38,813 bases of DNA from an uncultured Bacilli bacterium (GTDB taxonomy: Bacteria; Bacillota_I; Bacilli_A; RF39; UBA660). Numbering within the stretch: position 1 is the first letter of the stretch; every line of letters starts with the position of its first letter. The stretch is taken from NCBI GenBank assembly GCA_949280095.1, contig CASDHD010000001.1:1-38813 (forward strand). Direction: 5' to 3'. Positions 4,260 through 37,799 of the stretch are shown piece after piece. A model generated the notes under the pieces. That model was not told the DNA's origin, did no database searches, and was given only the letters and a program-made list of their open reading frames with translations. The position numbers and the translations under genes were made by a program.

Positions 4260-4287
4260 TTGTTTATCTAAAGATTTGTGCTATAAT
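4260..4287 (+). promoter_or_regulatory. Sigma-A type promoter of the T-box leader
   Basis: -35 ttgttt (4260-4265), 16-nt spacer, and an extended -10 tgcTATAAT (4279-4287). Confidence 0.5.
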
Positions 4288-4294
4288 GTGATTA

Positions 4295-4531: not shown

Positions 4532-4652
4532 ATGGTGTGATTGAGTTTTTTTGAATATAGTGAGTTTATAATTGTGAAAATTTGTTTTGTCTTTTAAAAT
4601 GGAATGGGGTAAAGGGTTAAATGAGTATGGTTGATTTAAAAAGAAAGGAAAA

Positions 4653-5105
4653 ATGAAAATGGAAAATAAAAATGAAATAATTTTGTTTGAAAATCAAAGG
4701 GTAAAATTAGAAGTAAATATGAAAGATGAGACAGTCTGGTTGAATCGAGAACAATTGGCACAATTGTTCGATAGAGATATTAAGACTATTGGTAAACATA
4801 TTCATAATATTTTAAATGAGGAATTAGATAGTTCAGTTGTCGCAAAATTTGCGACAACTGCTAGTGATGGTAAAACTTACCAAGTTGATTATTATAATTT
4901 AGATATGATTATTAGCGTTGGGTACCGTGTAAAATCACAAAATGGTGTTGTCTTTAGACGATGGGCTAATCAAATATTGAAAGACTATATGATTAAAGGA
5001 TATGCTGTTAATCACCAAAGACTAGCAATGCTTTCAAGAACAGTTACACTATTAGATATAGCGAATAGGAGCAATGAACGTATTACTGCAGATGAAGCAA
5101 TTTAG
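4653..5105 (+). CDS. RhuM-family protein, N-terminal domain only (probably truncated)
   Basis: The sequence matches my recollection of the conserved RhuM N-terminal region: WLNREQLAQLFDRDIKTIGKHIHNI...YNLDMIISVGYRVKSQNGVVFRRWANQILKDYMIKGY. At 150 aa it is far shorter than full-length family members. Confidence 0.6.
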   Translation: MKMENKNEIILFENQRVKLEVNMKDETVWLNREQLAQLFDRDIKTIGKHIHNILNEELDSSVVAKFATTASDGKTYQVDYYNLDMIISVGYRVKSQNGVVFRRWANQILKDYMIKGYAVNHQRLAMLSRTVTLLDIANRSNERITADEAI

Positions 5106-5136
5106 TGATGAATTTTTTGGTATAGAAGGGGGTATT

Positions 5137-6186
5137 ATGAATAATTTGTTAGAAAAAACTAGTAAAAATGAAGATAAGTTATTAAATGAATTATATACAG
5201 AAATATCTTCTATTATTACTAAAAATAAAGAAAAGATGGTGTATCAAATTAATGATACATTGGTAAATACTTATTTTTTGATTGGAAAAGTGATAGTAGA
5301 GAATGACCAAAATGGGAATATACGTGCCGAATATGGCAAAGAGTTACTTAAGAAATTGTCTAAAAGATTAACAGAAAAATTTGGTAGTGGTTTTAGTATT
5401 TCAGGATTGTATAATATGAGACTTTTTTATACTAAGTATAAAAATTTCCAACCACTGGCTGGAAATTTGAGTTGGAGTCATTATTGTTATTTAATATATA
5501 TAGAAGATGATGATGAACGAGCGTTTTATGAAAAAGAATGTATTAATTCAAAATGGTCTAAAAGAGAGTTAAAACGGCAGATTGATTCTTCATTATTTCA
5601 ACGTTTATTACTTTCAAAAGGAAATACGAATAAGAAGAAAGTTTATGAATTAGCAAAACGAGGTCAAACTCTTCAAAATCCAATTGATATTTTAAGAGAA
5701 CCTTATGTTTTTGAATTTTTAGGAATTTCAGAAAATAAAAAAATATTAGAAAGTGATTTAGAAAAAAATTTAATCAATCATCTATCAAGTTTTTTAATGG
5801 AACTTGGTAAAGGATTTATGTATGTTGGTAATCAATCAAGAATTACTTTGGATAATAATACGCATTATTATGTAGATTTAGTATTTTATAATAAAATTCT
5901 TAGATCGTATGTATTAATTGATTTAAAGATAGATGATATGAAGCCAGAGTATGTAGGGCAAATGAATATGTATGTCAATTATTATAATAATGAAATTAGA
6001 GATGAATTTGATAATGAAACTATTGGTATTATTCTTTGTAAGGGAAAAAATGAAGTGACAATGGAATATGCCCTAGGAGGATTATCTAATCATGTATTTG
6101 CATCAACTTATACGTATTATATTCCAAATAAAGAACAACTCATTAATGAAGTAGAAAAAGTTTTATACGAGGAGGAAATAGAATGA
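5137..6186 (+). CDS. DUF1016/YhcG-family PDDEXK nuclease-like protein
   Basis: ATG 5137 follows gaaggggg. Motifs: LSWSHYCYLI, the WSKRELKRQI helix, and a C-terminal core YYVDLVFYNKILRSYVLIDLKIDDMKPEYVGQMNMYVNYY (D..D/ExK-like). Its stop overlaps the pheS start (ATGA at 6183-6186). Confidence 0.7.
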   Translation: MNNLLEKTSKNEDKLLNELYTEISSIITKNKEKMVYQINDTLVNTYFLIGKVIVENDQNGNIRAEYGKELLKKLSKRLTEKFGSGFSISGLYNMRLFYTKYKNFQPLAGNLSWSHYCYLIYIEDDDERAFYEKECINSKWSKRELKRQIDSSLFQRLLLSKGNTNKKKVYELAKRGQTLQNPIDILREPYVFEFLGISENKKILESDLEKNLINHLSSFLMELGKGFMYVGNQSRITLDNNTHYYVDLVFYNKILRSYVLIDLKIDDMKPEYVGQMNMYVNYYNNEIRDEFDNETIGIILCKGKNEVTMEYALGGLSNHVFASTYTYYIPNKEQLINEVEKVLYEEEIE

Positions 6187-19378: not shown

Positions 19379-20161
19379 ATGAAATTAATAAATACTCAAA
19401 GTTTTAATAAAAAAATCAAGAAAAAGCAAATCATTCAAGCAGGAGCTATTTGCATTGGGACAATGTTAATTACGACATTATCTTTAAAAACAGAAGATGC
19501 TAAATTATTAGAAAATTTTAACCAAGGCTTAGAGATGGGTGCTATAAAGTATCCTTTAGAGTATAATGGGGGAAAAAATCACTATGGAATTAGAGATTAT
19601 AATCACGGTGCTTCTTGGGATTATGAGGAATACGAAACTTTTTTTGGTAAAATAGAGGAATATCAAACCACTAATTCTGTTGTTATGGAAGTTATACAAG
19701 GAAAATATGGTAACGGTGAAGATAGAAAACAAGGTTTAGAAGCAAATGGATATGATTATGATGAAATTCAGTCTGGTGTCAATGAATATTACAAAAATTC
19801 TTATGAAGAAAGTAGTACTTTAAATGAGTCAATAGAAATTTTAGAGCCATGTTTAAATCCACCAAGTTGTAGTGATAACTATAGTAGTGCTTTAGCATCA
19901 GAATATAATGTTTGTCATCCTTATGAAAATGGTATAGATCCTTATATTGGTAGTGAATCTATGTCTTATGAGGCTCCTAAAGGTTATATATATAATATTG
20001 ATAGTAGTCCTATGTCTTATGAGGCTGCCAAAGAGTATATAGATAGTGAAATTAATAAGCGCGGAGGTAATATTACTTACGGTGAACTTGAAAGGACTTT
20101 GGTGAGAGAATTTGGGGTTACAGGACGAGAGTATTATAGAGATTATATCAACGGTAGATAA
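19379..20161 (+). CDS. Membrane-anchored or secreted protein with one CW_7 (Cpl-7-like) cell-wall-binding repeat
   Basis: RBS agaggggga. N-terminal hydrophobic segment IIQAGAICIGTMLITTL. CW_7-like VIQGKYGNGEDRKQGLEANGYDYDEIQSGVNEYY. Internal duplication SMSYEAPKGYIY / PMSYEAAKEYID. Confidence 0.6.
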   Translation: MKLINTQSFNKKIKKKQIIQAGAICIGTMLITTLSLKTEDAKLLENFNQGLEMGAIKYPLEYNGGKNHYGIRDYNHGASWDYEEYETFFGKIEEYQTTNSVVMEVIQGKYGNGEDRKQGLEANGYDYDEIQSGVNEYYKNSYEESSTLNESIEILEPCLNPPSCSDNYSSALASEYNVCHPYENGIDPYIGSESMSYEAPKGYIYNIDSSPMSYEAAKEYIDSEINKRGGNITYGELERTLVREFGVTGREYYRDYINGR

Positions 20162-23461: not shown

Positions 23462-24931
23462 ATGAAAATATATAATAGGCATGAAAGATTACCAAGAAAT
23501 TATACGATGATGAGTGATGCTTATGAGTTTACAATGAGTATGGCTTATCTACTTAATAATAAACAAAATGAAGAGGCAGTGTTTGATGTTTTCTTTAGAG
23601 AGGTACCAAATGGTGGAGGGTATGCTGTGATGGCAGGACTTGACCAAATTATTCCTTACATTGAGAATTTAAAATTTAGTGAACAAGATTTAGATTTTTT
23701 TAGAAGAAACCATTATCCAGAAGAATTTATTACTTATTTAAAAAACTTTAAGTTTACAGGAAGTATTTATGCTATTCCTGATGGAACTCCAGTATTTCCA
23801 AACGAACCATTAATTACTGTAAAAGCACCTCTAATTGAAGCACAAATCGTGGAGACAGCTATTTTATCAATAATCAATGGTTCTATGGAACATGCAACAG
23901 GTGCTAGAAAGATTATAGAAGTAACTCCTAAAAATGTTGGTGTAATGGAGTTTGGAGCTAGACGTGCTGCGGGAGTTGAAGATGCGATTAACTCTTCTAT
24001 TTATGGAATTATGGCTGGCTGTGTGGGAACGAGTAATGTAATGGCAGCAGATATGTTAAACATTCCAGCAATGGGAACAATGGCACATAGTTATATTGAG
24101 TCATTTTCTAGTGAGTATGAATCATTCTTAAACTATGCTTTAACTTATCCTAACAATTGTATGTTACTTGTAGATACGATTGATACTTTAAGAAGTGGAG
24201 TACCAAATGCTATTCGTGTCTTTAACTATATGAAAGAAAAAGGGATTAGTACAGAACATATAGGTATTCGTATTGATTCAGGAGATTTAGCTTACCTTTC
24301 TAAAGAAGCAAGAAAGATGTTAGATCAAGCTGGATTTCCAAATGCTAAAATCTGTTTAAGCAATGGTCTTGATGATGAGAAAATTGAGAATTTGATTGTG
24401 CAAGGAGCTTATTTTGATAGTCTAGGTGTTGGAGATAATATTTCTAGACCAAATGGTAGAATGGGTTGTGTGTATAAAGAAGTTGCCTTAAAAATCAATG
24501 GAGTATGGGTACCTAAAATTAAAATAAGCAATACGACTGCTAAGATTATCAATCCAGATTATAAAAAATTATATCGTGCTTATGACAAAGAAACTGGTTT
24601 TGCAGTTGCAGATATTATGACAAGAAGAAATGAAACTATAAAAAAAGAAGATTTAACCATTGTAAATCCTAATGATTTTACTAAACGAAAAACACTCCAA
24701 CATTTTGAGTTAAGAGAATTGCAACAACCAATTTTTATAGATGGACACCTTGTTTACCATGATTCTGAAATTATGGAAAAGCAACAGTATTGTAATGCTG
24801 AAATGCAAACGCTGTATCCAGAAGTAAAAAGAAGAGTTAATCCTCAAGAGTATTATGTAGATGGTACAGAAGATTATGTGAAATTTAGGATGGAAATGAT
24901 TGAAAATACAAGGAAGTTGGTTCGTAAGTAA
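23462..24931 (+). CDS. pncB: Nicotinate phosphoribosyltransferase
   Basis: 489 aa with MSDAYEFTM, GTMAHSYI and IRIDSGDLAYLS motifs typical of NAPRTase. Confidence 0.9.
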   Translation: MKIYNRHERLPRNYTMMSDAYEFTMSMAYLLNNKQNEEAVFDVFFREVPNGGGYAVMAGLDQIIPYIENLKFSEQDLDFFRRNHYPEEFITYLKNFKFTGSIYAIPDGTPVFPNEPLITVKAPLIEAQIVETAILSIINGSMEHATGARKIIEVTPKNVGVMEFGARRAAGVEDAINSSIYGIMAGCVGTSNVMAADMLNIPAMGTMAHSYIESFSSEYESFLNYALTYPNNCMLLVDTIDTLRSGVPNAIRVFNYMKEKGISTEHIGIRIDSGDLAYLSKEARKMLDQAGFPNAKICLSNGLDDEKIENLIVQGAYFDSLGVGDNISRPNGRMGCVYKEVALKINGVWVPKIKISNTTAKIINPDYKKLYRAYDKETGFAVADIMTRRNETIKKEDLTIVNPNDFTKRKTLQHFELRELQQPIFIDGHLVYHDSEIMEKQQYCNAEMQTLYPEVKRRVNPQEYYVDGTEDYVKFRMEMIENTRKLVRK

Positions 24932-24932
24932 G

Positions 24933-25532
24933 ATGGAAAAGTTAGATGAAATTTGGAAGTTTTTTGAAGAGTTAAAAACTATTCATATAGAAAGGCAAAG
25001 AAATGGTTTGGTAAAACGCAAAACTTTTTTACAAATGGAAAGATATAAATGTTTATTAAATAATGGCAAAACAATGATTAGGGAAAAAGTTTTAAAAGAT
25101 TATAAAGATGGAAATGCAGCCATCATTCTTCCTATTACGGAAGATGGACACTACCTTTTAGCAATTGAACCAAGAGTCTTTACTAAAAAAACTGTAGATA
25201 TTGGCTTTCCAGCAGGATATATAGAAAACGGAGAAAGTCCAAGTGATGCAGCTATACGTGAATTAGAAGAAGAAACAGGATATACGCCAGAACACTTAGA
25301 ATGTATTGGTTCTTATTATCAAGATCAGGGATGTTCTGCTGCTTACAATTATTATTATATTGCAAGAAATTGCAAAAAAGTAAGCGAACAGCGCTTAGAT
25401 AAAGATGAGTTTATTAAATATGTGTTGGTAACAGAAGAAGAACTAGATGAAATAGTTCGTCGTGATTGGATGAAAGGTCTCAATTCGGCATATGTGCTTG
25501 AAAGAGCAAAAAATTTAAAAGAAAAGAGGTAA
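24933..25532 (+). CDS. Nudix hydrolase, ADP-ribose pyrophosphatase-like
   Basis: ATG 24933 lies just after the pncB stop. Nudix box GYIENGESPSDAAIRELEEETGY. Confidence 0.75.
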   Translation: MEKLDEIWKFFEELKTIHIERQRNGLVKRKTFLQMERYKCLLNNGKTMIREKVLKDYKDGNAAIILPITEDGHYLLAIEPRVFTKKTVDIGFPAGYIENGESPSDAAIRELEEETGYTPEHLECIGSYYQDQGCSAAYNYYYIARNCKKVSEQRLDKDEFIKYVLVTEEELDEIVRRDWMKGLNSAYVLERAKNLKEKR

Positions 25533-25536
25533 AGAA

Positions 25537-27459
25537 ATGGATTGTTTTGGATTTGTGAAAGTAGGGGCTAGTGTTCCTGAACTTAAGGTAGGAGATGTTA
25601 AATTTAATACTGAAGAAATAAAAATACAAATAAAAAAGGCCATCGAAAAAAATATAGGAGTTTTGGTATTTCCTGAACTTTGTTTAACAGGTTATACTTG
25701 TGCAGATTTATTTCATCAAGATTTGTTATTGCAAAAATCGAAAGATGCTTTAGAGGATTTACTTGCCTTTTCAAAGGGTAAAAAAATTGTTTTTATTGTA
25801 GGGGCTCCTATCTTTTTGGATAACGCTCTTTTCAATACTGCAGTGGTGATTCAAAATGGAAAACTATTAGGGATTGTTCCAAAAACGTACATTCCAAATT
25901 ATAATGAATTTTATGAGAAACGTTGGTTTACAAGTGGTGAATCTATCATTTCGAAAGAAATGAAGTTATGTCATCAAATGGTTCCTATTGGTACAGATTT
26001 GTTGTTTTCTTGTGAAAATGTAGATGGATTCACTTTTGGAATTGAAATTTGTGAAGATGTATGGAGTGTAAACCCTAAAAGTAACGATTTAAGTACTGCG
26101 GGAGCTACTGTTATTTTTAATCTATCTGCAAGTAATGAAACAATAGGGAAATATGAATATCGAAAAAACTTAATCAAGATGCAATCTGCTAAAACAATGA
26201 CAGGTTATGTATATGCTTCATCAGGCGTGAATGAAAGTACGACAGATTTATTATTTTCTGGGGCAAGTATGATTTATGAAAATGGTACACTCTTGTGTGA
26301 AAATAAACGTTTTGATTTTACTAGCAACCTTATTTGTACGGATATTGATGTTCAAAAACTTAACCATGATCGAATGAAGAATACAAGTTTTCAAATGAAC
26401 GAAGTGAAAGAATATCGTAATATTGAGTTTAAAGTAGAGAAAAATCCTGTACTTGATAGACTTTATGTGAAAACACCTTTTGTTCCAAGTAATAGTATCA
26501 AAAGAAAAGAAAGATGTGAAGAAATCATTCATATTCAAAGTTGTGCTCTTGCCAAAAGATTAAAGCACACGAATATCAAAAAATGTGTTCTTGGAATTTC
26601 TGGTGGACTTGATTCAACTCTAGCATTTTTGATTATTGTAGAAGCTTATAAAAAACTTGGAATTGATAATGAAAATATTATTGCAGTGACGATGCCAGGA
26701 TTTGGAACAACGAATCGTACTTACCAAAATGCTATTGCTTTAGTAAAAAAATACAAAGCTACTTTAAGAGAAGTAGATATTAAATCTTCTTGTTTACAAC
26801 ATTATCAAGATATTGGTCATGATATCGATAACCATGATATAACTTATGAAAATGGGCAAGCAAGAGAACGTACGCAAATTTTAATGGATATTGCCAATCA
26901 AGTAAATGGGCTTGTAATTGGAACAGGAGATTTATCTGAACTTGCTCTTGGTTGGTGTACTTATAATGGGGACCATATGAGTATGTATGCAGTAAATACG
27001 AGTATTCCCAAAACGCTTGTAAAATACTTAGTAGAATTTTTAGCAGAAAATGAAAGTCCAGCTAGAGAAATACTACTTGATATTTTAGATACACCTATAT
27101 CTCCTGAACTTTTACCTCCTAGTAAAGAGGGAATGATAAAGCAAATCACAGAAGATAATGTAGGTCCTTATGTATTACATGATTTTTATTTATATCATTT
27201 CTTACGAAACGGTGCTTCACCTAAGAAAATACTTGAACTAGCACATCTTACTTTTCAAGACGATTTTACTAAAGAAGAAATTTTAAAATGGTTAAAAGTA
27301 TTTTTAAGACGTTTTTTTACACAACAGTTTAAAAGAAGTTGTATGCCTGATGGAGTGAAAGTAGGAAGCATTAGTTTATCACCAAGAGGAGACCTTAGAA
27401 TGCCAAGTGATGCATCTTACAATATTTGGTTAGAAGAATTAGAAAGTGAGGAAGAATGA
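25537..27459 (+). CDS. nadE: Glutamine-dependent NAD+ synthetase (CN-hydrolase glutaminase domain plus synthetase domain)
   Basis: 640 aa. N-terminal nitrilase-like domain (FPELCLTGY, EICED). C-terminal PP-loop GISGGLDST. Confidence 0.9.
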   Translation: MDCFGFVKVGASVPELKVGDVKFNTEEIKIQIKKAIEKNIGVLVFPELCLTGYTCADLFHQDLLLQKSKDALEDLLAFSKGKKIVFIVGAPIFLDNALFNTAVVIQNGKLLGIVPKTYIPNYNEFYEKRWFTSGESIISKEMKLCHQMVPIGTDLLFSCENVDGFTFGIEICEDVWSVNPKSNDLSTAGATVIFNLSASNETIGKYEYRKNLIKMQSAKTMTGYVYASSGVNESTTDLLFSGASMIYENGTLLCENKRFDFTSNLICTDIDVQKLNHDRMKNTSFQMNEVKEYRNIEFKVEKNPVLDRLYVKTPFVPSNSIKRKERCEEIIHIQSCALAKRLKHTNIKKCVLGISGGLDSTLAFLIIVEAYKKLGIDNENIIAVTMPGFGTTNRTYQNAIALVKKYKATLREVDIKSSCLQHYQDIGHDIDNHDITYENGQARERTQILMDIANQVNGLVIGTGDLSELALGWCTYNGDHMSMYAVNTSIPKTLVKYLVEFLAENESPAREILLDILDTPISPELLPPSKEGMIKQITEDNVGPYVLHDFYLYHFLRNGASPKKILELAHLTFQDDFTKEEILKWLKVFLRRFFTQQFKRSCMPDGVKVGSISLSPRGDLRMPSDASYNIWLEELESEEE

Positions 27460-28532
27460 TGAATGAGTTAAAATTAATCGTTTTGGATAATATAGAAGGT
27501 TTAGGTAGAAAGGTGGATGAACATTTACAAAAGGAAACAGGTTGTACAGAGTCCTTTTTACTTCCTATTACAAAAGATCGCTTTAGTAACGGAGAAGGAA
27601 AGATTAAAATTAATGCATCTGTACGAGATAAAGATATTTATATTTTAAGTGATGTTGGAAACTATAACATTACGTATCTTATGCATGGATATACTCATCA
27701 TTATTCACCTGATGAACACTTTCAAGATATTAAAAGAGTGATTTCGGCTCTTTCTGGATATGCTGCGAAAATCACTTTAGTTATGCCTTTGCTTTATGAG
27801 TCACGTCAACATAAAAGAAAAGGAAGAGAGTCTTTAGATTGTGCGATTGCCCTAAAAGAACTTGAATCCCTTGGTGTAGATCATATCGTTACTTTCGATG
27901 CGCATGATCCAAACGTTTCTAATGCTATTCCGAATCTTCCTTTTGAAAATTTCTTTGTGGCCCATGATATTTTAAATCAAATTGTAAAAAAAGAAAATAT
28001 TAGTAATTTACTTGTTATTAGTCCCGATATGGGTGCTATGGAGCGTGCTAGATATTATGCTGAAATTTTAAATAGCGATGTAGGTGTTTTTTATAAAAGA
28101 AGAGATTTGAGTAAAGTGATTGATGGCAAAAATCCAATTGTAGAGCATGTTTATTTAGGAGCTCCTGTTGTTGGAAAAGATGTTATTGTTGTTGATGACA
28201 TGATTGCGACAGGTTCTTCCATGATTGAAGTAGCAGAATATTTAAAAAGCCATGGGGCTGGAAAAGTGTATTTGGTTTCTACGTTTGCTCTTTTAACAGA
28301 AGGTCCTTCTATTTTTATAGAAAGCTATCAAAAGGGTTTATTTGATAAGCTTTATTCTACTAATCTTTCTTATGTTTCTGATATTATCAAAAATTTGGAG
28401 TGGTATGAAGAAGTAGATTGTTCAAAAAGACTTTCTCGTATTATTGAAAAATTACACAATAAAGAATCTTTAAAAACCATTTATGATGATGTTAAAGAGG
28501 TATTACATAATGTAGAGAGGAAAAAAGTATGA
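27456..28532 (+). CDS. prs: Ribose-phosphate pyrophosphokinase (PRPP synthetase)-like
   Basis: ATGA overlap with nadE. PRPP-binding loop VIVVDDMIATGSSM, ISPDMGAMERA and FDAHDP motifs. Confidence 0.7.
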   Translation: MMNELKLIVLDNIEGLGRKVDEHLQKETGCTESFLLPITKDRFSNGEGKIKINASVRDKDIYILSDVGNYNITYLMHGYTHHYSPDEHFQDIKRVISALSGYAAKITLVMPLLYESRQHKRKGRESLDCAIALKELESLGVDHIVTFDAHDPNVSNAIPNLPFENFFVAHDILNQIVKKENISNLLVISPDMGAMERARYYAEILNSDVGVFYKRRDLSKVIDGKNPIVEHVYLGAPVVGKDVIVVDDMIATGSSMIEVAEYLKSHGAGKVYLVSTFALLTEGPSIFIESYQKGLFDKLYSTNLSYVSDIIKNLEWYEEVDCSKRLSRIIEKLHNKESLKTIYDDVKEVLHNVERKKV

Positions 28533-29107
28533 GAATTGGAATATTTGGTGGCTCTTTTAATCCACCGCATAAGTTGCATAAAAAAATTGCTACCTACTTA
28601 CTTGAAAATAACTATGTAGAAAAGGTGATTTTTGTTCCTACGGGAAATCGTTATCCAAAAGAGGCGTTACTGGAAAGTCAATATCGTTATCACATGATTA
28701 AAGAGATGATTAAGGATTCTAAAAATATGGAAGTATCGGATTATGAACTTAAAAATACTCTTACATATACATACCAAACGCTTTCTTATTTTCAAGAAAA
28801 GTTTAAGAATGATAAAATTTTTTTTATAACTGGAGCAGATAATTTAAAAGAAATAAAAACTTGGAAGAATTATCAATATATTTTAGAACATTTTAACTTG
28901 TATGTTTTACCTAGAAAAAAGCAAAATGTAAAGGAAATTTTAAGTCATCTTCCCAATGAGAATATTTTTGCTTTAGATTTTGAAACAGAAGATGTTTCTT
29001 CTACAGATGTACGAAAAGCAATCAAAGAACATTGTGAAGAATATTTAAATTCCGTTTTGGATGAAAATGTTTTAGAATATATAAGGAAAGAAGGGTTGTA
29101 TCAATGA
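28529..29107 (+). CDS. nadD: Nicotinate-nucleotide adenylyltransferase
   Basis: ATGA overlap with prs. IGIFGGSFNPPHKLH (H/TxGH motif) and a C-terminal SSTDVR (ISSTxxR) motif. Confidence 0.9.
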   Translation: MRIGIFGGSFNPPHKLHKKIATYLLENNYVEKVIFVPTGNRYPKEALLESQYRYHMIKEMIKDSKNMEVSDYELKNTLTYTYQTLSYFQEKFKNDKIFFITGADNLKEIKTWKNYQYILEHFNLYVLPRKKQNVKEILSHLPNENIFALDFETEDVSSTDVRKAIKEHCEEYLNSVLDENVLEYIRKEGLYQ

Positions 29108-29577
29108 TGAGAGAGGTTGTAGAAAAATTAGTGCAAAAGGGCATGACAATAAGTACGATGGAGTCTTGTACTGGGGGATATATTGCAAGTGCTATAACGG
29201 ATATAGAAAATGCTAGTAAAGTTCTTTCTTTTAGTGCAGTGACATATTCCAATGATGCCAAAATCAAAATGGGTGTCGATGAGAATGTTATAAAAACCTA
29301 TTCTGTTTATAGTATGAAAACAGCAGATGAAATGAGTAAAAATATTGCTCACTATGCCAATTCTAGTTTGGGTGTAGGAATTACAGGTCAAATAAATCGT
29401 AAGGATGAACAAAATCCTACAAAGGAACAAGATAAGGTTTATATTAGTATTTTTGATGTAGAAAAAAATGTATTTTATCAAGAAATTTTACAAACTGTTT
29501 CAGGAACAAGACAGAAAAATAAAGAACTTATAGGCAGTAAAGTAAAAGAAATGCTTATGCATATTTTATCGCTATAA
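29104..29577 (+). CDS. pncC: Nicotinamide-nucleotide amidohydrolase (CinA C-terminal domain)
   Basis: ATGA overlap with nadD. TMESCTGGYIASAITDIENASKVL...VTYSNDAKIKMGV is typical of PncC/CinA_C. Confidence 0.8.
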   Translation: MMREVVEKLVQKGMTISTMESCTGGYIASAITDIENASKVLSFSAVTYSNDAKIKMGVDENVIKTYSVYSMKTADEMSKNIAHYANSSLGVGITGQINRKDEQNPTKEQDKVYISIFDVEKNVFYQEILQTVSGTRQKNKELIGSKVKEMLMHILSL

Positions 29578-29621
29578 TTTTAAAGACGTGTTATAATCAA
29601 ATTGTAAATAAGAGGTATATA

Positions 29622-30425
29622 ATGGATAGAAAAATCAATCGTATTTGTTTGTTTTCTAATCATAATGAGAAAGCAAAAAGTATTGAAGAGGAAGTGAAAA
29701 GACAACTTGAAGAAAAAGGATTTTCTGTAGTGGACAAAGAATATGATATGGGTCTTGCTATTGGAGGAGATGGTTCTTTTCTTCGTATGGTCAAACAAAC
29801 AGGTTTTTTAAGTCATCTTTATTACGCTGGTATTAATGCTGGTACTCTTGGCTTTTTACAAGAAATTAAAATAGAGGAAATCGCCGATTTTGTTGAAAAA
29901 CTTAAATACAATAAATTTAAAGTAGATGAGGTGAGTATTCAAGAAACGAAAGTGATAGCAAAGAATGATTCTATAACGTATTGTTCCTTGAATGAATTTG
30001 TTGTTAGAGATAAGTATTTAAATACGACAAATTTGAAAGTTTATGTGAATGATGAATTGTTAGAAAGATTTGTTGGGGATGGAATTTTGATTTCTACTTC
30101 AACTGGTTCTACTGCTTATAACTTAAGTTTTGGTGGAAGTATCGTTTATGCAAGTTTACATACATTGCAAATTACCCCTATAGCGCCTCTTAATAATAAA
30201 TCGTATCGAAATTTGTTAAATTCGGTGATTGTTCCAGAAAATGCTAAAATCACTTTGGTGCCTGAAAAGGAAAAAAAGGATTTACTTATAAGTGTTGATG
30301 GGGAAAACGAAGAGTGCAATGAAGTAGAGAAAATTGAAATTACAGTGCGGAATAAGAAGATAAAATGTTTAAGAATGTATGATTACGATTTTACAAAAAT
30401 CATTCAGGAAAAATTTTTAAAGTAA
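29622..30425 (+). CDS. nadK: NAD kinase
   Basis: GGDGSFLR, GTLGFL and STGSTAYNLSFGGSIV motifs. Confidence 0.9.
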   Translation: MDRKINRICLFSNHNEKAKSIEEEVKRQLEEKGFSVVDKEYDMGLAIGGDGSFLRMVKQTGFLSHLYYAGINAGTLGFLQEIKIEEIADFVEKLKYNKFKVDEVSIQETKVIAKNDSITYCSLNEFVVRDKYLNTTNLKVYVNDELLERFVGDGILISTSTGSTAYNLSFGGSIVYASLHTLQITPIAPLNNKSYRNLLNSVIVPENAKITLVPEKEKKDLLISVDGENEECNEVEKIEITVRNKKIKCLRMYDYDFTKIIQEKFLK

Positions 30426-30436
30426 GAGGTGTTGAA

Positions 30437-31264
30437 ATGAAAGAATATAAAACTGAAGAAGAATTTTTGCGTGATTATGATCCAACGCAATTTGACCCGT
30501 TTTCTTTAACGAGTGATATTTTAATTTTTAGTGTATCGGATGGTTTACAAGAAAATTATCGAAAGTTAAATAAAAAGTATTTTAGTATTTTGCTTGTTAA
30601 AAGAGATACATATCCTTTTAAAGATAAATGGTGTTTGCCTGGTGGTTTTGTGAGAATTAATGAGGATATTGAAGAGGCAGCAGAAAGAATTTTAAAGGAT
30701 GAAACCAACATAAAAGATATATATTTAGAACAACTTTATACGTATGGAAATCCTAATAGAGACCCTAGAATGCGTGTTATTTCTACATCCTATATGGCTT
30801 TAATTGATAAAAATAGGTTAAAAGTGGATGTGACTAAGAATGCTTCTTGGTTTAATGTGATGCTTTTAGAAGACGAAAAAAGAATAGATGTCACTTTAGA
30901 TAATGGGAATGAACTGATTAAGTTTAAAATCAAGAAAACATTAAAAGAAAAAACGACTGATCGTTATAAATATGAAATTTTAGAAAATGAGAGTCTTGCT
31001 TTTGATCATCCTCTTGTGATTGTGAGTGGGATTTCAAGGCTAAAAAATAAGTTAGAATATACAGATATTGTTTTTAATATGATGCCTACTTATTTTACTT
31101 TAGGAGAATTGCAACAAGTTTATGAAGTGATTTTAGGAAAAAAATTGTTAGATCCTGCTTTCCGACGTATTATCAAAGATAAGGTAGAAAAAACGGAAAA
31201 GATGCAAACGGGTGGAGGACATAGGCCTTCGGCGTTATTCCGATATAAAATGTTTAAAAAGTAA
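30437..31264 (+). CDS. nrtR: NrtR-type Nudix-related transcriptional regulator of NAD metabolism
   Basis: N-terminal Nudix-like domain (WCLPGGFVRINEDIEEAAERILKDETN) fused to a C-terminal winged-helix region (FTLGELQQVYEVILGKKLLDPAFRR). It is the last gene of the NAD operon. Confidence 0.75.
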   Translation: MKEYKTEEEFLRDYDPTQFDPFSLTSDILIFSVSDGLQENYRKLNKKYFSILLVKRDTYPFKDKWCLPGGFVRINEDIEEAAERILKDETNIKDIYLEQLYTYGNPNRDPRMRVISTSYMALIDKNRLKVDVTKNASWFNVMLLEDEKRIDVTLDNGNELIKFKIKKTLKEKTTDRYKYEILENESLAFDHPLVIVSGISRLKNKLEYTDIVFNMMPTYFTLGELQQVYEVILGKKLLDPAFRRIIKDKVEKTEKMQTGGGHRPSALFRYKMFKK

Positions 31265-31286
31265 GCCTATTTTTATTTGGCTTTTT
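31263..31286 (+). terminator. Weak terminator after nrtR
   Basis: aagcc/ggctt 5-bp stem with an 11-nt loop, then a T-run. Confidence 0.4.
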
Positions 31287-31324
31287 AATTTAGTAATTGA
31301 AAAAATGCATTTTGTATACATTTG

Positions 31325-31333
31325 TGTTACAAT
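31325..31333 (+). promoter_or_regulatory. Extended -10 element (TGtTACAAT) upstream of the DGR cassette
   Basis: tgttacaat at 31325-31333. No good -35 hexamer was seen. Confidence 0.4.
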
Positions 31334-31514
31334 AATTTTATATTTATAGGTTGTGGATATTATGCAAGTAAGTAGGAATAGTAATTTGAAAATTCCCAAA
31401 CATATAGAAATTGCGGAAACTGAAATAAATAGTTTAGAAGATAAAATAGCTGTGAGGCAAGGTATTGCGATAGCGAATGATGAAAAAATTCGTAAGGAAT
31501 TTTTAAAAGATGAG

Positions 31515-31989
31515 ATGGACATAGAAGATAAAGAATGGAAAGAAATAGAAAAAATTCCTTCTAATGCTAATGATTTAATTGCTATAACTGTTGTGAAAAA
31601 ATTAGGGGCTTATGTTATTGCAGTAACGGAAAAATCACCTAAAAAATTTCGCGGCTTATGTTATTGCAGTAACGGAAAAATCACCTAAAAAATTTCGCGG
31701 AGTGTTTGTGAATAGAATGCAAAATTATTGTTTGGATACATTAGAACTTTTACTAGAGGCTAATTTTATTCGTATAGACTCTAAAGATAATAAAACAAAA
31801 AGAGAGGAGTTGCAAAAGGAAGCTATTGTAAAATTAAAGCTTCTAGGATATGTTGCTATGGTTTCTCTAAATGCTTCTTGTATTTTGACTAGACAGTATA
31901 AGCAAATATCTATGCAACTTGCAAAAGCAATCAATCTTATCATTGCTTGGAAAAAAAGCGATGATGAAAGGTTTAAAAAAAGAAATTAG
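31515..31989 (+). pseudogene. avd: DGR accessory variability determinant (Avd, four-helix-bundle / 23S rRNA-IVS-like protein), frameshifted by a 46-bp tandem duplication
   Basis: The two ORFs 31353..31688 (frame 0) and 31702..31989 (frame +1) fuse in frame if one 46-bp copy is removed. The fused product is ...DLIAITVVKKLGAYVIAVTEKSPKKFRGVFVNRMQNYCLDTLELLLEAN...LAKAINLIIAWKK... This resembles the Bordetella Avd pattern (..SIPRKHGVAREMFLKCLLGQVELFIVAG...ILGSWI.., quoted from memory). The start at M55 (31515) is a guess; the frame is open from 31353. Confidence 0.7.
31607..31698 (+). repeat. Perfect 46-bp tandem duplication inside avd
   Basis: ggcttatgttattgcagtaacggaaaaatcacctaaaaaatttcgc at 31607-31652 is repeated exactly at 31653-31698, followed by a further gg. 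46 is not a multiple of 3. Confidence 0.95.
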
Positions 31990-32061
31990 GATTATAGGTT
32001 GAAAAGCCTTTAATTAAGAAGAAAATTTATATTTTTCGTGTGTGCAAGAGCCCCTGTTTTG

Positions 32062-32141
32062 CGCCCGCGCTGTTAACTAAAATGGAAATAGAAATTGGAA
32101 CAATGTTAATAAACGTACTGGTGGGGCTCGCCCAGATTCAC
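32062..32141 (+). repeat. DGR template repeat (TR)
   Basis: 80 bp align without gaps to 33619-33698. Of 19 mismatches, 17 are at TR adenines. It is a GC-rich island in AT-rich sequence, has 7 AAY codons in the VR frame, and lies between avd and the RT. Confidence 0.9.
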
Positions 32142-32276
32142 TTTTGAAGAGATTTTTAATAAATCTAGAAAACGGATTCGAGAAATTTATTTTAGAAAAA
32201 ATAGGTCTATATCTTAAGGTGAAGGAATTTTCTTCTTTTCTATTCGCTATGAATTTATGCGTTTAGAAGAATATAA

Positions 32277-32338
32277 AAACACCTACACAAACAACGGATA
32301 TTTTATTCTTTGTGCGTTATAAGAGGTGTTTATTTTTT
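32277..32338 (+). promoter_or_regulatory. Structured hairpin plus U-tract in the TR-RT spacer, immediately before the RT RBS
   Basis: aaacacct (32277-32284) pairs with aggtgttt (32324-32331). There is an inner cacaaa/tttgtg helix. tttttt lies at 32333-32338, then GGAGG at 32339-32343 and ATG at 32349. Confidence 0.45.
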
Positions 32339-32348
32339 GGAGGATTTT

Positions 32349-33269
32349 ATGAAATTAGAAGAGATTTTCACCTTTGAAAATTTATACCGAGCATATAAAA
32401 AATGTCGCAAAGGAAAGCAACATAAAGGAGAGGTTATTCGTTTTGAAACAAATCTATCAGTTAATTTAAGTAATATTAGAAGTGAATTGTTAAGTAAAAC
32501 ATATAAACTTGGAAAATATAAGAAATTTTATATTTATGAGCCAAAAGAAAGGCTTATTGAAGCATTGCCTTTTAAAGATAGAGTAGTTGTTCGATGTTTT
32601 TGTGATACTTCATTACGTCCTAAACTTGAAAAAAAACTAATATTTGATAATTGTGCTTGTCGTAAAGAAAAAGGAACACATTTTGCTATTCAAAGGTTGC
32701 ATCGCTTTTTAAGAAAAGAATTTAAAATAGAACAAAACAATCATTTTTATTTTTTAAAATGTGATATCAAAAAATTTTTTCCTAGTATCCATCATGATAT
32801 TTTATTAAATCTTTTAAAGGAAGTTGATTTTTCAGTGGAAGAAATGTGGCTAATAAAAAAACTTGTCAAAGACCAACCTGACAAAGCAAATATTGGACTT
32901 CCTTTAGGTAATCAGTCTAGTCAATGGTTTGCTTTATTTTATTTGAATAAAGTGGATCATTTTATTAAGGAAAAATTACAGATAAAATCTTACGTTCGTT
33001 ATATGGATGACATGATTTTGCTTCATAAAGATAAAGAAGTTTTAAAAAGATGTAAAACAGAAATTGAAATAATGATTAAAGATTTATTAGAATTAGAATT
33101 GAATTCTAAAACACAGATTGGACAAGTTAAAAATGGAATTGATTTTTTAGGATATCGCCATATCATGAAAGAAAAAGGAAGAATTATTATAAAATTAAGG
33201 GCTTCTTCTAAACATAGAATGAAAAAACACATTAAAACAATTCATAAGCTTATAAAAAAGGAATTGTAG
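32349..33269 (+). CDS. DGR-type reverse transcriptase. As written the frame stops at 33269; the C-terminal segment continues in the -1 frame to 33388.
   Basis: GGAGG lies 5 nt upstream of ATG 32349. RT motifs: PKERLIEALPFKDRVV, DIKKFFPSI, LGNQSSQ (the DGR-specific [LIV]GxxxSQ) at 32904-32924, YMDD at 33000-33011, and FLGY. Confidence 0.9.
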   Translation: MKLEEIFTFENLYRAYKKCRKGKQHKGEVIRFETNLSVNLSNIRSELLSKTYKLGKYKKFYIYEPKERLIEALPFKDRVVVRCFCDTSLRPKLEKKLIFDNCACRKEKGTHFAIQRLHRFLRKEFKIEQNNHFYFLKCDIKKFFPSIHHDILLNLLKEVDFSVEEMWLIKKLVKDQPDKANIGLPLGNQSSQWFALFYLNKVDHFIKEKLQIKSYVRYMDDMILLHKDKEVLKRCKTEIEIMIKDLLELELNSKTQIGQVKNGIDFLGYRHIMKEKGRIIIKLRASSKHRMKKHIKTIHKLIKKEL

Positions 33270-33388
33270 ATGGAAAGTATGTGTCAATAAGAAAGAATGC
33301 TTTTTCTAACCATATTAAGCATACGAACGAATCTTCTCATTGGAAAGAGGAAATTTTTTCCAAAATGGATGAAACTGTGATAAAATAA
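33254..33388 (+). other. -1-frame continuation encoding the missing RT C-terminal (thumb-end) segment. The junction is an A_AAA_AAG heptamer.
   Basis: Zero frame: ...ctt atA AAA AAG gaa ttg tag. The -1 frame from 33254 reads KKGIVDGKYVSIRKNAFSNHIKHTNESSHWKEEIFSKMDETVIK*. Its HxxH(T/A)(N/D) pattern resembles my recollection of the C-terminal ..SWLGHARHADT.. region of the Bordetella phage RT. Confidence 0.6.
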
Positions 33389-33412
33389 AATTAAGAACAT
33401 TGGTGATTTTGT

Positions 33413-35491
33413 ATGAGTAATTTAACATTTTTAACAGAGGAACAAATCTTCGGAAAAAGTTGTCTAGAAATATTTAATAAATATGGTACAGAATGTGCAA
33501 TTACAGATTTCTCTATTCTTTTAGGAGGATATGTATCGAATTTTTGTTATACTAGTGAAGGAGATTCGCAAGAAAATCGTACTGGTTGGTGGTGGACTAA
33601 GACACCTTATGGAAATAACGCCCGCGTTGTTGACTGGCCTGGACTTAGGCGTTGGAGCGATGTTGATAGGCGTGCTGGTGGGGCTCGCCCAGCTTTACCT
33701 TACTCAGTAATCCAATCCATCTCCTCGAACAGAGTGAGAGGGACTAATGGTATTTTGGAAGTAGAGTATGGAGAATATCCACAAACTATAGTTCCAGAAT
33801 CACTTTCAAATTTGTTAGAACAAAATTTTCAATATAAAACACTCACAAAGACTGGAAAAGAGTATATTACAGATTCTGTACAGTGTGATTGTTATTCTAC
33901 TTCTTTTCAACCACGAAACCATATTGAGTTTAGTTATAAAGGAAAAAAATTCATTCGCTTTGTAGCAGATTTAAATTGTGAGGATAGAAATTTGTCCGAT
34001 GGCCGTCAGGTGAAAGTTGGTAGTCCTTATTGGATAGAAGTAGAACCTATTAAATGGTTAATTTCTGAGAAAGAAAATATAGCAGTTTGTAAAAAAATTA
34101 TTTTTGCAGGAGTTCAATTTAATCAAGAGCAAAATTATAAAGGGAATTTTGAGAATACCGATATTTATAAATTTTTAGAAAATTGTTTTTCGAAAGATAT
34201 AGAAGCTATTAACATCAATACACCTTTAGAAAATAAAGAAACAAAACCAACCCGCTTACAAAAAATGAATCCTGATACGACCAAAGTAAATGAACGAAGA
34301 AATATGACGGCAACAGAAAAAATTCAAGATTGGATCGAATCAGGGCAATCTGTTTTGCTGCGTGGACCCTCTGGTATCGGAAAAACAGAAAGACTGAAAA
34401 CTTTGTACCCAGATTTAATTTATATCAAACTAACAAACAATATGTTTCCAGAAAAAGTAGTAGGGTCGATGAATTTCCAAACGGGACAAAACATTCCTCC
34501 TGATTTCTATAAACAAGCAATGCTCGATTGTGCAACTCCAGAAGAACAAAAATTAATCAAAGAAAATGTCCAAAATTTGTATGACTTAGCAGATAAAATT
34601 TATGAACGATCAAAAGAAAGCAAAGGAAAAATTGTCATCTTGCTCGATGAACTTTTAAATGTGACACCTGCGGTTCAATCTCTGGTCTATACCTTAGTAC
34701 TAAATCGACTAGTAGAAATAGGAAAGGGTTTGAAATTACCTGAAAATGTGGTAGTGGTAGCAACAGGAAACCAAAAAAAATACTCTATTGTAGCAAAAGA
34801 CATAGCAGAACCTCTTGAAAAACGTTTTGATCATATTTTTGATATGGAGCCAAAAGTAGGAGAATGGTTATATGACTATGCGATTCCTAATAAAATTCAT
34901 CCTTCTGTTATTGGTTTTATTATGTCCAAGTATTTAAGTACAGGAAAAAGTGAAGAAATAAAAGATATGGGATACTTCTATGAAGAACCAGAAATTGGAG
35001 AAATGCATCCTGATAAATATGGTTGTAATGGAAGAACCAATGACCCCAGAGGATGGGTATCCATATCCAATACACTGTATAAGTTTGAAAAAAACTTACA
35101 AACAGGCAAATACATAGGAAAAAATGTGGAAAATATATTAGAAACTTCTATAAATACCAAATTGCGTTCTGAGTGGGCAAGTGCTTTCTTTAACTTTTAT
35201 AATTTACCTACTTTATCTGTCAAAGAAGTCGTAGAAAAAAACTATGGAGAGAGTGCTTTACCAAAAACGAGCAACGAACGATTTGCGACTCTTACTTCTC
35301 TTTTAATGGCAAACAAAGACGAAATAAAAGCATGTAGAGAATTTGTAAGAAACTATTGTGATCCTGAATTTTTAGAACTCTATGACTTCTGTTGGATAGG
35401 CAAAGATATAGCAAGAATGGAAAAAATTATGGAGTTAAAATCATTAGAAAATAATGTAGAACTTCCAAGTGAAAGGAGAGCAATGGCGTGA
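33413..35491 (+). CDS. DGR target: cytoplasmic protein with an N-terminal VR-bearing ligand-binding-like domain fused to a MoxR/AAA_5-type AAA+ ATPase
   Basis: No signal peptide or TM helix. N-terminal WWWTKTP...ARVV...GGARPAL motif resembles DUF1566/DUF6273-type (C-type-lectin-fold-like) modules. The VR covers codons 70-96. Walker A GPSGIGKT at 34364-34387, Walker B IVILLDE, and PENVVVVATGNQ. Confidence 0.85.
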   Translation: MSNLTFLTEEQIFGKSCLEIFNKYGTECAITDFSILLGGYVSNFCYTSEGDSQENRTGWWWTKTPYGNNARVVDWPGLRRWSDVDRRAGGARPALPYSVIQSISSNRVRGTNGILEVEYGEYPQTIVPESLSNLLEQNFQYKTLTKTGKEYITDSVQCDCYSTSFQPRNHIEFSYKGKKFIRFVADLNCEDRNLSDGRQVKVGSPYWIEVEPIKWLISEKENIAVCKKIIFAGVQFNQEQNYKGNFENTDIYKFLENCFSKDIEAININTPLENKETKPTRLQKMNPDTTKVNERRNMTATEKIQDWIESGQSVLLRGPSGIGKTERLKTLYPDLIYIKLTNNMFPEKVVGSMNFQTGQNIPPDFYKQAMLDCATPEEQKLIKENVQNLYDLADKIYERSKESKGKIVILLDELLNVTPAVQSLVYTLVLNRLVEIGKGLKLPENVVVVATGNQKKYSIVAKDIAEPLEKRFDHIFDMEPKVGEWLYDYAIPNKIHPSVIGFIMSKYLSTGKSEEIKDMGYFYEEPEIGEMHPDKYGCNGRTNDPRGWVSISNTLYKFEKNLQTGKYIGKNVENILETSINTKLRSEWASAFFNFYNLPTLSVKEVVEKNYGESALPKTSNERFATLTSLLMANKDEIKACREFVRNYCDPEFLELYDFCWIGKDIARMEKIMELKSLENNVELPSERRAMA
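33619..33698 (+). repeat. DGR variable repeat (VR), within codons 70-96 of the target gene
   Basis: See the TR entry. The 3' 18 bp CTGGTGGGGCTCGCCCAG (33675-33692) is identical to TR 32118-32135, an IMH-like GC-rich element. Confidence 0.9.
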
Positions 35492-35877
35492 AAAAAGAAC
35501 TAATCGAATTGCAATTTGGTAGTTGTGCTACTTGTGTTGTTATTTTAGATGAATATTATAAAGAATTAGGACCTACTATTTTCATGGAAGGAAATATGAG
35601 TGATACAAACTTATACGCTTGTTCCTATGAAAATCCTATATTTAAAGAAAAATTAGAAACGATGGCGAAAAACTACGAGCAAGTTTATTTTGTCATTCGA
35701 CATATAGAACAAATTACAGAAGTAGAGCAAAATAGGTACATTGCCCTTGTAAAAGATAGAGAGTTTTGTGGATTTCAAATTCCTGATAATGTAGTAGTAG
35801 TGTTTACCGTTGGAGAAGAAATGGATATAAAGAAAATATCCAAAGAACTCTATCATTTCTGTGTAATAGCAATATAA
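35488..35877 (+). CDS. Small cytoplasmic protein, possibly a degenerate Walker-less AAA+ fragment
   Basis: GTG 35488 overlaps the target stop (GTGA), with aaaggagag 9 nt upstream. VYFVIRHIEQITEVEQNRYIALVKDREFCGFQIPDNVVVVFTVG aligns with the Walker B to sensor-1 stretch of the upstream ATPase. Confidence 0.6.
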   Translation: MKKELIELQFGSCATCVVILDEYYKELGPTIFMEGNMSDTNLYACSYENPIFKEKLETMAKNYEQVYFVIRHIEQITEVEQNRYIALVKDREFCGFQIPDNVVVVFTVGEEMDIKKISKELYHFCVIAI

Positions 35878-35885
35878 GGTGACGC

Positions 35886-37136
35886 ATGAATATAGAGAAG
35901 AATCTAATTGAAGAAACACTTAAGATTATTATTATACGTTATTCAGAGTTTGCAAGTGAAATTGCCTCCTGTAAATTCGAGTATCGTACCGATTTAAAAT
36001 ACAAAACTGCTGCAACAGACGGAAAAGATGTCTTTATAGATCCAGAATATTTTACAAGTTTAGATGAAGAAGGAAGAGCCTTTTTACTAGCACATGAACT
36101 AATGCATAAAAAGTTTTTGCACCATCTGCGAATCGAAAAAAATGGTGTAAAAAGAGATCCAGAAGTCTGGAACGAAGCCACCGATGCTGTAAATAATGCC
36201 AACTTAGAGCGTGATGGATTTAAAATTGCGGAAGGGTATATCAATCGCCCTGAAGCACTTCACTATTCAGCAGATGAGTTTTATGAAATCTTATTAAAAG
36301 AAAAACAAGAAAATCCAAACAAAAAAGAATATACGCATTGCGATGACCATACCCTTTGGGAAGAAGTGCCAAAAAATACAAAAGAAATTCCAGAAATTGA
36401 TGAAAGAAAAGAATTTGCAGAAAACAGAAGAATCCGTATGGAAAAAGCAAAAGAAAACTATGAACGCCTGAAAGAAGAAATCTTAAAAAAAGAATCCTCA
36501 AGCGAAGAAGTAAAAGTAGGAGACATTGGAGAAAGTGCGTCCCCTATAGATTGGAAAATTTTAGTTAGAAGAGAATTTGATAAGCAAGAAACGCTTTGGA
36601 GTAGGAGAAGAAGTATAGAAGAAAATAACTATGCGTATCGTTTAGAAGAAATAGACAGAGAAGATGAAGCAGAAACAGAAGTATTAATTGATATTTCAGG
36701 GTCTGTCAGCTTAGATTTAATAAGAGCCTTCTTAAGAAATTTAAAGCCACTTATTAAAGAATCAAAATTAAAAGTAGGTTGTTTTAATGAAAAATTCTGG
36801 GGGATGGTAGAAATAAAATCAGTGCGTGATATCGATCAGTTCGTATTGCCAAAAGGTTCAACTGTGGGGGCTTGGACACAAGATTGTGACCTTGCGGTTC
36901 GTTCTTTTTCAAAAAAAAGAGAAGTCAACAAATTTATTTTTACAGATGGTTATCTTGTACCTAGAAATATGCCTAGAAAAGATTTAAATAATGAAAATGT
37001 AATATGGCTTGTTTATGGAAATAAAAACTTCAAACCTTGTTGTGGAAAAGTTATTTTTATTAATGAAAAACAATTAAAAGCAATGTATTGTTATCAAGGA
37101 TATACAGATACAAATAGCCAGTCTAGATTTATTTAG
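35886..37136 (+). CDS. Predicted metallopeptidase (DUF2201_N-like HExxH) fused to a vWA domain; the MoxR partner protein
   Basis: RBS aaggtga. TAATDGKDVFIDPEYF, HELMH at 36093-36107, WNEATDAVNN, MIDAS DISGS at 36690-36704, and FTDGY. Confidence 0.8.
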   Translation: MNIEKNLIEETLKIIIIRYSEFASEIASCKFEYRTDLKYKTAATDGKDVFIDPEYFTSLDEEGRAFLLAHELMHKKFLHHLRIEKNGVKRDPEVWNEATDAVNNANLERDGFKIAEGYINRPEALHYSADEFYEILLKEKQENPNKKEYTHCDDHTLWEEVPKNTKEIPEIDERKEFAENRRIRMEKAKENYERLKEEILKKESSSEEVKVGDIGESASPIDWKILVRREFDKQETLWSRRRSIEENNYAYRLEEIDREDEAETEVLIDISGSVSLDLIRAFLRNLKPLIKESKLKVGCFNEKFWGMVEIKSVRDIDQFVLPKGSTVGAWTQDCDLAVRSFSKKREVNKFIFTDGYLVPRNMPRKDLNNENVIWLVYGNKNFKPCCGKVIFINEKQLKAMYCYQGYTDTNSQSRFI

Positions 37137-37286
37137 AAAAAAATTTGTTGGATGTAAAAAAGAATAGAAAGGAAACATATCTTTATCTACATTTTATATT
37201 TAACGAATAGTAAAAAAGAGGAATTTGTGTTAAAATAGTAATAATTATGGTAGGTCATTATTAAGATTTTAAAGAAGGTGAAGCAA

Positions 37287-37799
37287 ATGACTCAAAAGAT
37301 AGCAAATTTTATAGTGGGCTTATTTAGTGGTATAGCTGGTAGTATGTTAGGAAAGTATCTTGTTATTTTTATCATCAGTTTGTTTCCTATTCTAGAACTT
37401 CGTGGTGGATTAATTGCTGCTAGTTTACTAAATCTTCCTATGTGGCAAAGTTTTTTTGTTTGTTTTGTTGGAAATATTATTCCTATCCCATTTATTCTTT
37501 GGCTTATTAATCCTATTTTTCGAAGAATGCGCAACTGGCGTTATTTAGGAAAAGTAGTACTATGGTGTGAAGAAAAAGCACATTCTAAGCAAGAAAAAAT
37601 TGAGAATTTAAAATATGTAGGATTGTTTTTATTTGTAGGAATTCCTATTCCTGGAACAGGAGCGTGGATGGGGTGCTTAATTGCAGCATTACTTGATATG
37701 GATAAAAAGAAATCTTTTCTTGCAGCACTTCTTGGGGTTATTTTTGCTGGTATCATTATGCTTATTTTTTCATACGGAATATTGGGAAGGATTTTCTAA
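37287..37799 (+). CDS. Small multidrug-export-family (COG2426-like) integral membrane protein
   Basis: ATG 37287 lies 6 nt after gaaggtg. PILELRGGLIAA motif and 4-5 TM helices. Confidence 0.65.
   Translation: MTQKIANFIVGLFSGIAGSMLGKYLVIFIISLFPILELRGGLIAASLLNLPMWQSFFVCFVGNIIPIPFILWLINPIFRRMRNWRYLGKVVLWCEEKAHSKQEKIENLKYVGLFLFVGIPIPGTGAWMGCLIAALLDMDKKKSFLAALLGVIFAGIIMLIFSYGILGRIF

Follow-up and report, generated by a model that had tools for sequence, protein, structure and literature searches.

Among described systems, the closest to the locus reported here is the DGR of the Bordetella phage BPP-1. There, bRT shows no RT activity by itself and depends on Avd; bAvd is a positively charged pentameric barrel that binds the RT and the DGR RNA and is needed for cDNA synthesis (PMC6182149). 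Since bRT needs Avd, cDNA synthesis would be expected to cease once Avd is lost (PMC6182149). A second point of reference is the phase variation of the pneumococcal capsule, for which spontaneous intragenic duplications are described in cap3A, cap8E and tts; according to the account given in PMC4243769, recurrent duplications and their reversion are reported experimentally (Waite 2001, 2003). As to the control of DGRs, a study of Bacteroides DGRs notes that the mechanisms of their regulation 'await discovery' (PMC11601372), and a theory preprint builds on DGR states that are either active or inactive (10.64898/2026.02.18.706561). In the literature, we found no report of a DGR that is controlled through a duplication in avd.

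We analysed a stretch of 38,813 nt of DNA from an uncultured gut bacterium of the Bacilli, referred to as the window, in which the avd gene of a chromosomal DGR is split by a perfect 46-bp tandem duplication. Like BPP-1 Avd (4DWL, PF22296, NF033474), the protein encoded by the collapsed gene has a four-helix core and a PKKFR-type loop motif, its gene directly precedes the TR and a DGR-type RT, and by analogy it would be needed for RT activity (PMC6182149). Unlike BPP-1 Avd, the protein is 193 aa long and carries a conserved N-terminal extension of ~70 aa that bAvd does not have. The cassette also differs from that of BPP-1 in its target, which lies 3' of the RT and is an AAA+ protein with the VR close to its N-terminus. 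The likeness to the pneumococcal capsule genes is that a perfect tandem duplication within the ORF disrupts the gene, that losing one copy restores the frame, and that alleles with and without the duplication occur in near-identical bacteria. In contrast to the capsule genes, avd shows one event in one lineage and no recurrence in 160 relatives. A third comparison is with ordinary DGR erosion, since RT frameshifts, nonsense changes, loss of the RT and single-base lesions of avd all occur in the same DGR family. The perfect 46-bp duplication differs from these in being unique in the sample and comparatively easy to revert exactly.

Identity of Avd and its DGR cassette

When one copy of the duplication is removed from the sequence, the two halves of avd join into a continuous 193-aa ORF that extends from ATG 31362 to 31989. 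A search of a collection of 5.8 billion proteins with this collapsed protein yields 879 homologues, one of which carries the source name 'four helix bundle protein [Bacilli bacterium]'. The best 120 of the 879 are each 193–213 aa long, cover 94–100% of the 193-aa query and are 68–78% identical to it. The N-terminal 50 residues therefore belong to avd, and the conserved N-terminus of the Avd family sets the start at ATG 31362. An earlier note on this DNA had proposed a fused Avd-like ORF starting at 31515 with a length of 142 aa; the fused ORF stands, and its start is moved to the conserved ATG.

The assignment of the gene to Avd in the earlier note is supported by profile searches as well as by the predicted fold. 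PHROG 3206, 'Avd protein of DGR', matches residues 63–192 of the 193-aa ORF with E=9.4e-16. The NCBIfam model NF033474 (DivGenRetAVD) gives E=1.2e-6 and 28.8 bits, under its cut-off of 80, and Pfam PF22296 (bAvd) gives E=0.016 and 16 bits, under its cut-off of 40, with the 142-aa form as query. Individually, 27 of 30 members of the Avd family match PF22296 at E<=0.01. The profile signal is clear yet remains under the curated Pfam and NCBIfam cut-offs, and we conclude that the 193-aa ORF is a divergent, long Avd subfamily of a genuine DGR. The AlphaFold2 model of the collapsed protein, calculated from a 30-sequence alignment, contains helices at residues 71–90, 94–120, 126–155 and 161–192 with a pLDDT of about 90, and model confidence is low for the first ~70 residues. 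In a Foldseek search against the PDB, the top matches are 2gsc, 4dwl_D (Bordetella phage Avd) and 2rld, and the four-helix core aligns with 4dwl_D with a TM of 0.85 and an rmsd of 2.1 Å over 116 columns. A sequence-profile search against PDB sequences returned no match. Residues 1–70 (31362–31570) form a family-specific extension in which the motif LQVSRxxNLKIPK is conserved. Neither Bordetella Avd nor the distant, short homologues have this extension, the latter matching residues ~70–190 only.

The features of the cassette are listed in Table 1. Between TR and VR we count 21 mismatches, 18 of which are at TR adenines, so that avd is indeed part of a real DGR, as the earlier note had assumed, and past activity of this DGR is evident at the level of its repeat sequences. 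The RT protein of the one-copy contig L001, described below, is identical to that of the window. The gene order of avd, TR, RT and VR-bearing target is the same in relatives. The design of the target is unusual in that the VR lies near the N-terminus and the remainder of the protein is an AAA+ ATPase. Scans for tRNA, Rfam families, promoters and terminators gave nothing informative, and PADLOC on the target operon returned weak P-loop matches and nothing else. The neighbours of the avd-TR-RT-target cassette vary: in the window they are genes of NAD metabolism, in the species with Avd P0074 they are RuvB, QueH and a Y1 transposase. Given these differing genomic neighbourhoods, the cassette appears to move as a unit.

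Table 1. Coordinates of the split avd gene and of the DGR cassette in the window.
Feature	Position	Strand	Description
Upstream avd fragment	31362..31688	+	108-aa ORF: native Avd residues 1-98 followed by out-of-frame LCYCSNGKIT (10 aa)
Copy 1 of the 46-bp duplication	31607..31652	+	encodes GAYVIAVTEKSPKKFR
Copy 2 (inserted copy) of the 46-bp duplication	31653..31698	+	novel junction 31652/31653
GG microhomology	31699..31700	+	shift-46 run of 48 nt; leaves the duplication end points ambiguous by 2 nt
Downstream avd fragment	31708..31989	+	93-aa ORF from GTG 31708, native residues 102-193
Template repeat (TR)	32062..32144	+	TR/VR comparison; same in every conspecific contig covering the TR
DGR reverse transcriptase (RT)	32349..33269	+	306 aa, intact in the window; Pfam RVT_1 E=7e-18; PHROG 1423 E=9e-106
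Variable repeat (VR)	33619..33701	+	falls at residues ~68-98 of the target (692 aa)
DGR target gene	33413..35491	+	692 aa; VR-bearing N-terminal domain, then AAA+ ATPase (PHROG 1297 E=4e-33)
Two co-oriented ORFs	35488..37136	+	129 aa and 416 aa (DUF2201_N); travel with the cassette in relatives

The 46-bp duplication and its distribution

The two adjacent 46-mers are identical, with the unit GGCTTATGTTATTGCAGTAACGGAAAAATCACCTAAAAAATTTCGC, and the run of identity at a shift of 46 amounts to 48 nt, since the unit also begins with the GG that follows copy 2. Forty-six matches in a row cannot be due to chance. Among perfect tandem duplications with a period of 10 or more, the one in avd is alone in the window, and its array has the top TRF score of all window arrays. 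An imperfect 51-bp tandem repeat, with two copies and 82% matches, is found at 19944–20045. The upstream avd ORF is in frame 0, enters copy 2 and ends at the TAA stop 31686–31688; the downstream ORF is in frame +1. The pair of identical 46-mers and the fusion of the two halves upon deletion of one copy are thus found as the earlier note had described them.

The peptide GAYVIAVTEKSPKKFR, encoded by the duplicated unit, reaches from the end of helix 1 of the bundle across the loop into the beginning of helix 2. The frame is lost after G98, within the block TEKSPKKFRGVFVNRMQNYCLD that contains most of the invariant residues of the Avd family, including V99 and F100, and the break point lies in the best-conserved Avd motif, between TEKSPKKFRG and VFVNRMQNYCLD. 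A GGAG at 31698–31701 lies five nt 5' of GTG 31708, and an alternative start at GTG 31702 would give 95 aa. Exact protein look-ups find the 108-aa half (P0123) recorded on two contigs. The 93-aa form from GTG 31708 (P0122) is the downstream product on record and is also encoded by contig L004. Exact look-ups of half-ORFs beginning with ATG or GTG at 31702 and 31717 were empty, as were some look-ups of the 108-aa N-terminal fragment, though P0123 is the same fragment on record.

The duplication is present in at least one more assembly. Contig L004 (ENA ERZ14209636; SPAdes, 1,269 bp, coverage 2) contains both copies together with the junction 30-mer CCTAAAAAATTTCGCGGCTTATGTTATTGC. It differs from the window by 12 mismatches, of which 11, all G>T or C>A, fall within its final 60 nt and the other is at 32228. 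We considered L004 as a distinct background, which would imply recurrence, and rejected this, because 11 of the 12 mismatches look like read-end errors at 2x coverage. A further Logan contig, L002 (SRR27022926), differs from the window by 7 SNPs over 3.3 kb and ends at window position 31636. In a k=31 de Bruijn simulation, the junction, alone or mixed with the one-copy allele, makes the left unitig end exactly at 31636, while the one-copy allele alone gives no break there. Contig L005 (Logan SRR36199848) starts at the window-equivalent position 31686, 13 nt short of where the repeat unit ends. It was rejected as evidence for the junction, as the simulation predicts a start at 31671 rather than 31686, and it is counted for neither allele. 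The duplication is therefore read-supported by L004, whose sample may not be independent of that of the window, and the dataset of L002 probably supports it as a third one, under the same caveat.

Both states of avd occur in close relatives. The two-copy state is found in the window and in L004, the one-copy state in L001 and in at least eight more samples. Contig L001 is part of a 35-kb MEGAHIT-style contig (ERZ27269793) that aligns with window positions 24437–37310; over these 12,874 bp, one SNP (27883) and the 46-bp indel are the only differences. The single-copy contigs are L001, L003 and L006–L014, and at least nine other samples have contigs with the intact 193-aa allele (P0121). All two-copy sequences share one and the same unit and junction.

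To place the duplication in a wider context, the avd gene was compared across 80 species-level loci (L015–L094) and 80 metagenome loci (L105–L184). A clean avd is found in 76 of the former, with two more merely cut by contig ends, and in 73 of the latter, so that 149 of the 160 loci have a clean single ORF. A perfect tandem duplication in avd (period of 8 or more, run of 12 or more) is seen in none of the 160. The avd lesions of relatives are single-base frameshifts or stops, in L079, L109, L160, L162 and three more distant loci. The frame change of L162 near residues 98–120 was considered as a second event at the same site and rejected, being a single-base insertion. A conserved two-gene avd was likewise rejected, since the best 120 of the 879 homologues are single proteins and nearly all relatives, compared as the earlier note had proposed, carry avd as one unbroken gene; the note had named two conserved separate halves in relatives as an outcome that would refute its reading, and this did not occur. 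With a one-copy near-clone, intact alleles in at least nine samples and no duplicated relative, the two-copy state is, on this comparison, derived, recent and limited to one lineage.

Variable repeat invariance and erosion of the cassette

The VR region (33590–33720) and the TR are identical in all seven conspecific loci that cover the VR (L001, L003 and L006–L010), and the VR is the same whatever the avd state, in one-copy as in two-copy contigs. Between the window, L001, L003 and L006–L010, we see no ongoing VR diversification. The 740 nt at 33413–34152, which include the VR, are identical between strains with differing flanks. The identical VR may thus come in part from very recent shared ancestry of 33413–34152 rather than from long quiescence. 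Adjacent to this segment, window positions 34153–34477 form a mosaic, highly divergent linker block of the target gene when compared with the L006-type strains, with dozens of substitutions and many indels. Such a divergent block beside 740 identical nt speaks for either recombination or a sweep of the segment that carries the VR.

The invariant VR of the window lineage is informative because the VR of a sister species does vary, at positions of TR adenines. This species, whose Avd (P0074) is 72% identical and is indexed in 759 collection blocks, shows at least four VR haplotypes on nine contigs; all variable sites of its VR are at TR-adenine positions, and its TR is invariant. On these sequences, the family has diversified its VRs in nature, with the window lineage showing no sign of doing so. 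All nine long contigs of the sister species (L095–L103) have an in-frame TAA in the RT, between KLVKE and PNN, where the window encodes Q. In L096, the RT is at 4439–5455 with the stop at about 4964–4966, the TR at 4158–4237 and the VR at 5741–5820. The co-occurrence of a stopped RT and several VR haplotypes in this species could reflect either older diversification, an RT acting in trans, or read-through of the stop.

Erosion of the cassette, as read from these loci, is common across relatives. In the L006-type strains (L006, L008, L009 and L010, each from a different one of four samples), an independent 1-bp deletion at window-equivalent position 33199 shortens the RT from 306 to 290 aa with an altered C-terminus, and avd is intact in these strains. 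The RT is frameshifted or stopped in six species-level loci (L026, L048, L060, L066, L079 and L091). L016, L017 and L057 have an intact avd, at ~3990–4580 in each, and no RT. In these three loci, avd is directly followed by an AAA-type target-like ORF and two companion ORFs. In L017, the GC-rich motif of the TR/VR 3' end has a single occurrence, where a shortened target ORF of 605 aa begins. The arrangement of L016, L017 and L057 suggests a putative deletion of the TR-RT segment by recombination between TR and VR.

Origin of the duplication and alternative readings

In our judgement, the duplication is probably a recent, one-time, lineage-specific loss-of-function event in a quiescent and erosion-prone DGR, and one that is revertible in principle. 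A single illegitimate slippage or template switch at the 2-nt GG microhomology would create the 46-bp duplication. The junction follows TCGC, and its end points share GG alone; with only 2 nt of homology, the duplication should form rarely. Slippage between the two AAAAAATT 8-mers (31596 and 31641) was considered as the origin and rejected, as these are 45 nt apart and in frame, and the duplication measures 46 nt. The duplication shifts the frame in the conserved motif and splits the 193-aa Avd into pieces of 108 aa and 93–95 aa. This split most likely abolishes the function of Avd and hence RT-dependent cDNA synthesis. It is a reasonable inference, extrapolated from Bordetella to a distant family, that the DGR is inactive when avd is not intact. 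Loss of function may fall short of total, as the C-terminal fragment may be translated from GTG 31708. With the DGR presumably already quiescent in the species and its family often eroded, the lesion would be under weak or absent selection and thus close to neutral. Precise collapse could restore avd, as for any perfect tandem duplication, and the data give no sign that this route is used. A perfect tandem repeat of 46 bp should be lost far more often than it forms, judging by RecA-independent tandem-repeat deletion in E. coli, and with rare formation and frequent collapse any switch would be strongly asymmetric. Against a one-time loss, both alleles occur in near-identical backgrounds, which is also expected of an interconverting switch.

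A purely technical origin of the duplication has some arguments on its side. The assembler could, for example, have joined segments of a k=47 graph and left the 46-nt overlap untrimmed in a genome that truly has one copy; 46 equals k-1 for k=47, a value in use by some assemblers, public assemblies carry the one-copy allele far more often, and the JGI metagenome collection gave no match to the exact 32-mer. Against this stand the separate SPAdes contig L004 with the junction, which at k=55 requires reads across the whole unit, and L002, a contig from another run whose end at 31636 is exactly where a genuine junction k-mer must break a k=31 graph. On these two contigs we reject the k-1 overlap, and an artefact, which the earlier note had named as one outcome that would overturn its reading and which did not materialize, is extremely improbable. 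If the duplication is real, the split gene could still work, either because the fragments reassemble into the four-helix bundle or because rare slippage in transcription or translation on the A6 run (31641–31646) yields a full-length Avd with 15 additional aa, leaving a leaky DGR. The GGAG ahead of GTG 31708 and the position of the cut near the loop between helices 1 and 2 (71–90 and 94–120 in the model) would allow for this, and the VR diversity of the sister species despite its RT stop hints that broken parts do not always mean zero activity. However, the invariant V99 and F100 are removed or displaced in the best-conserved block of the family, 10 unrelated residues end the N-terminal fragment, a two-gene organisation occurs in none of the 160 relatives, and the VR shows no diversification, all of which makes a working split gene very unlikely.

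The earlier note had suggested that the duplication could act as a reversible switch rather than as simple decay. In such a switch, a two-copy state with the DGR off and the VR locked and a one-copy state with the DGR on would interconvert by slippage or recombination. A perfect 46-bp repeat is unstable and its precise collapse restores the ORF, the one-copy and two-copy backgrounds differ by one SNP in 12.9 kb, and the two-copy state is at consensus level in at least two assemblies. Precedent for such a switch comes from pneumococcal phase variation by reversible intragenic duplications, as summarised in PMC4243769; on/off control of DGRs is held open in the field (PMC11601372), and theory predicts cycling between active and inactive states (10.64898/2026.02.18.706561). 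The comparison with relatives speaks against a switch: none of the 160 related loci is duplicated in avd, and the other lesions of the gene are single-base indels or stops. The conspecific one-copy Logan contigs all cross the site without a graph break, so that the junction is undetectable in those samples. The microhomology is 2 nt and the nearby AAAAAATT 8-mers have the wrong spacing, which argues for rare formation and a strongly one-directional switch. Moreover, the VR is identical in both avd states, and a separate RT frameshift in sister strains, which does not look revertible, suggests that selection is relaxed on the element as a whole. This reading of the earlier note is thus not supported, and a reversible switch seems unlikely to us, being neither refuted nor backed by positive evidence. 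Within the same line of thought, the duplication would be a functional and revertible OFF state if a knockout of avd after fixation of a favourable VR saved the cost of hypermutation and rare collapse re-armed the DGR; this we regard as quite unlikely.

Were the OFF-state reading true, it would amount to a heritable genetic on/off control of targeted hypermutation, which is undescribed for any DGR. With the loss-of-function event that we prefer, the locus is a documented, read-supported case of a DGR accessory gene that is knocked out by a tandem duplication. The near-isogenic genomes, which differ essentially only in the integrity of avd, represent a potential natural experiment. The DGR family of gut Bacilli is often eroded, by RT stops, frameshifts or loss, and surveys should not presume that annotated loci are active. 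At the species-level loci, the RT is broken or absent in about nine and avd damaged in one or two, which is roughly the expectation from gene length and not clearly significant. A tendency of avd to outlast the RT, together with the very high conservation of avd, might hint at a role of Avd beyond supporting the RT.
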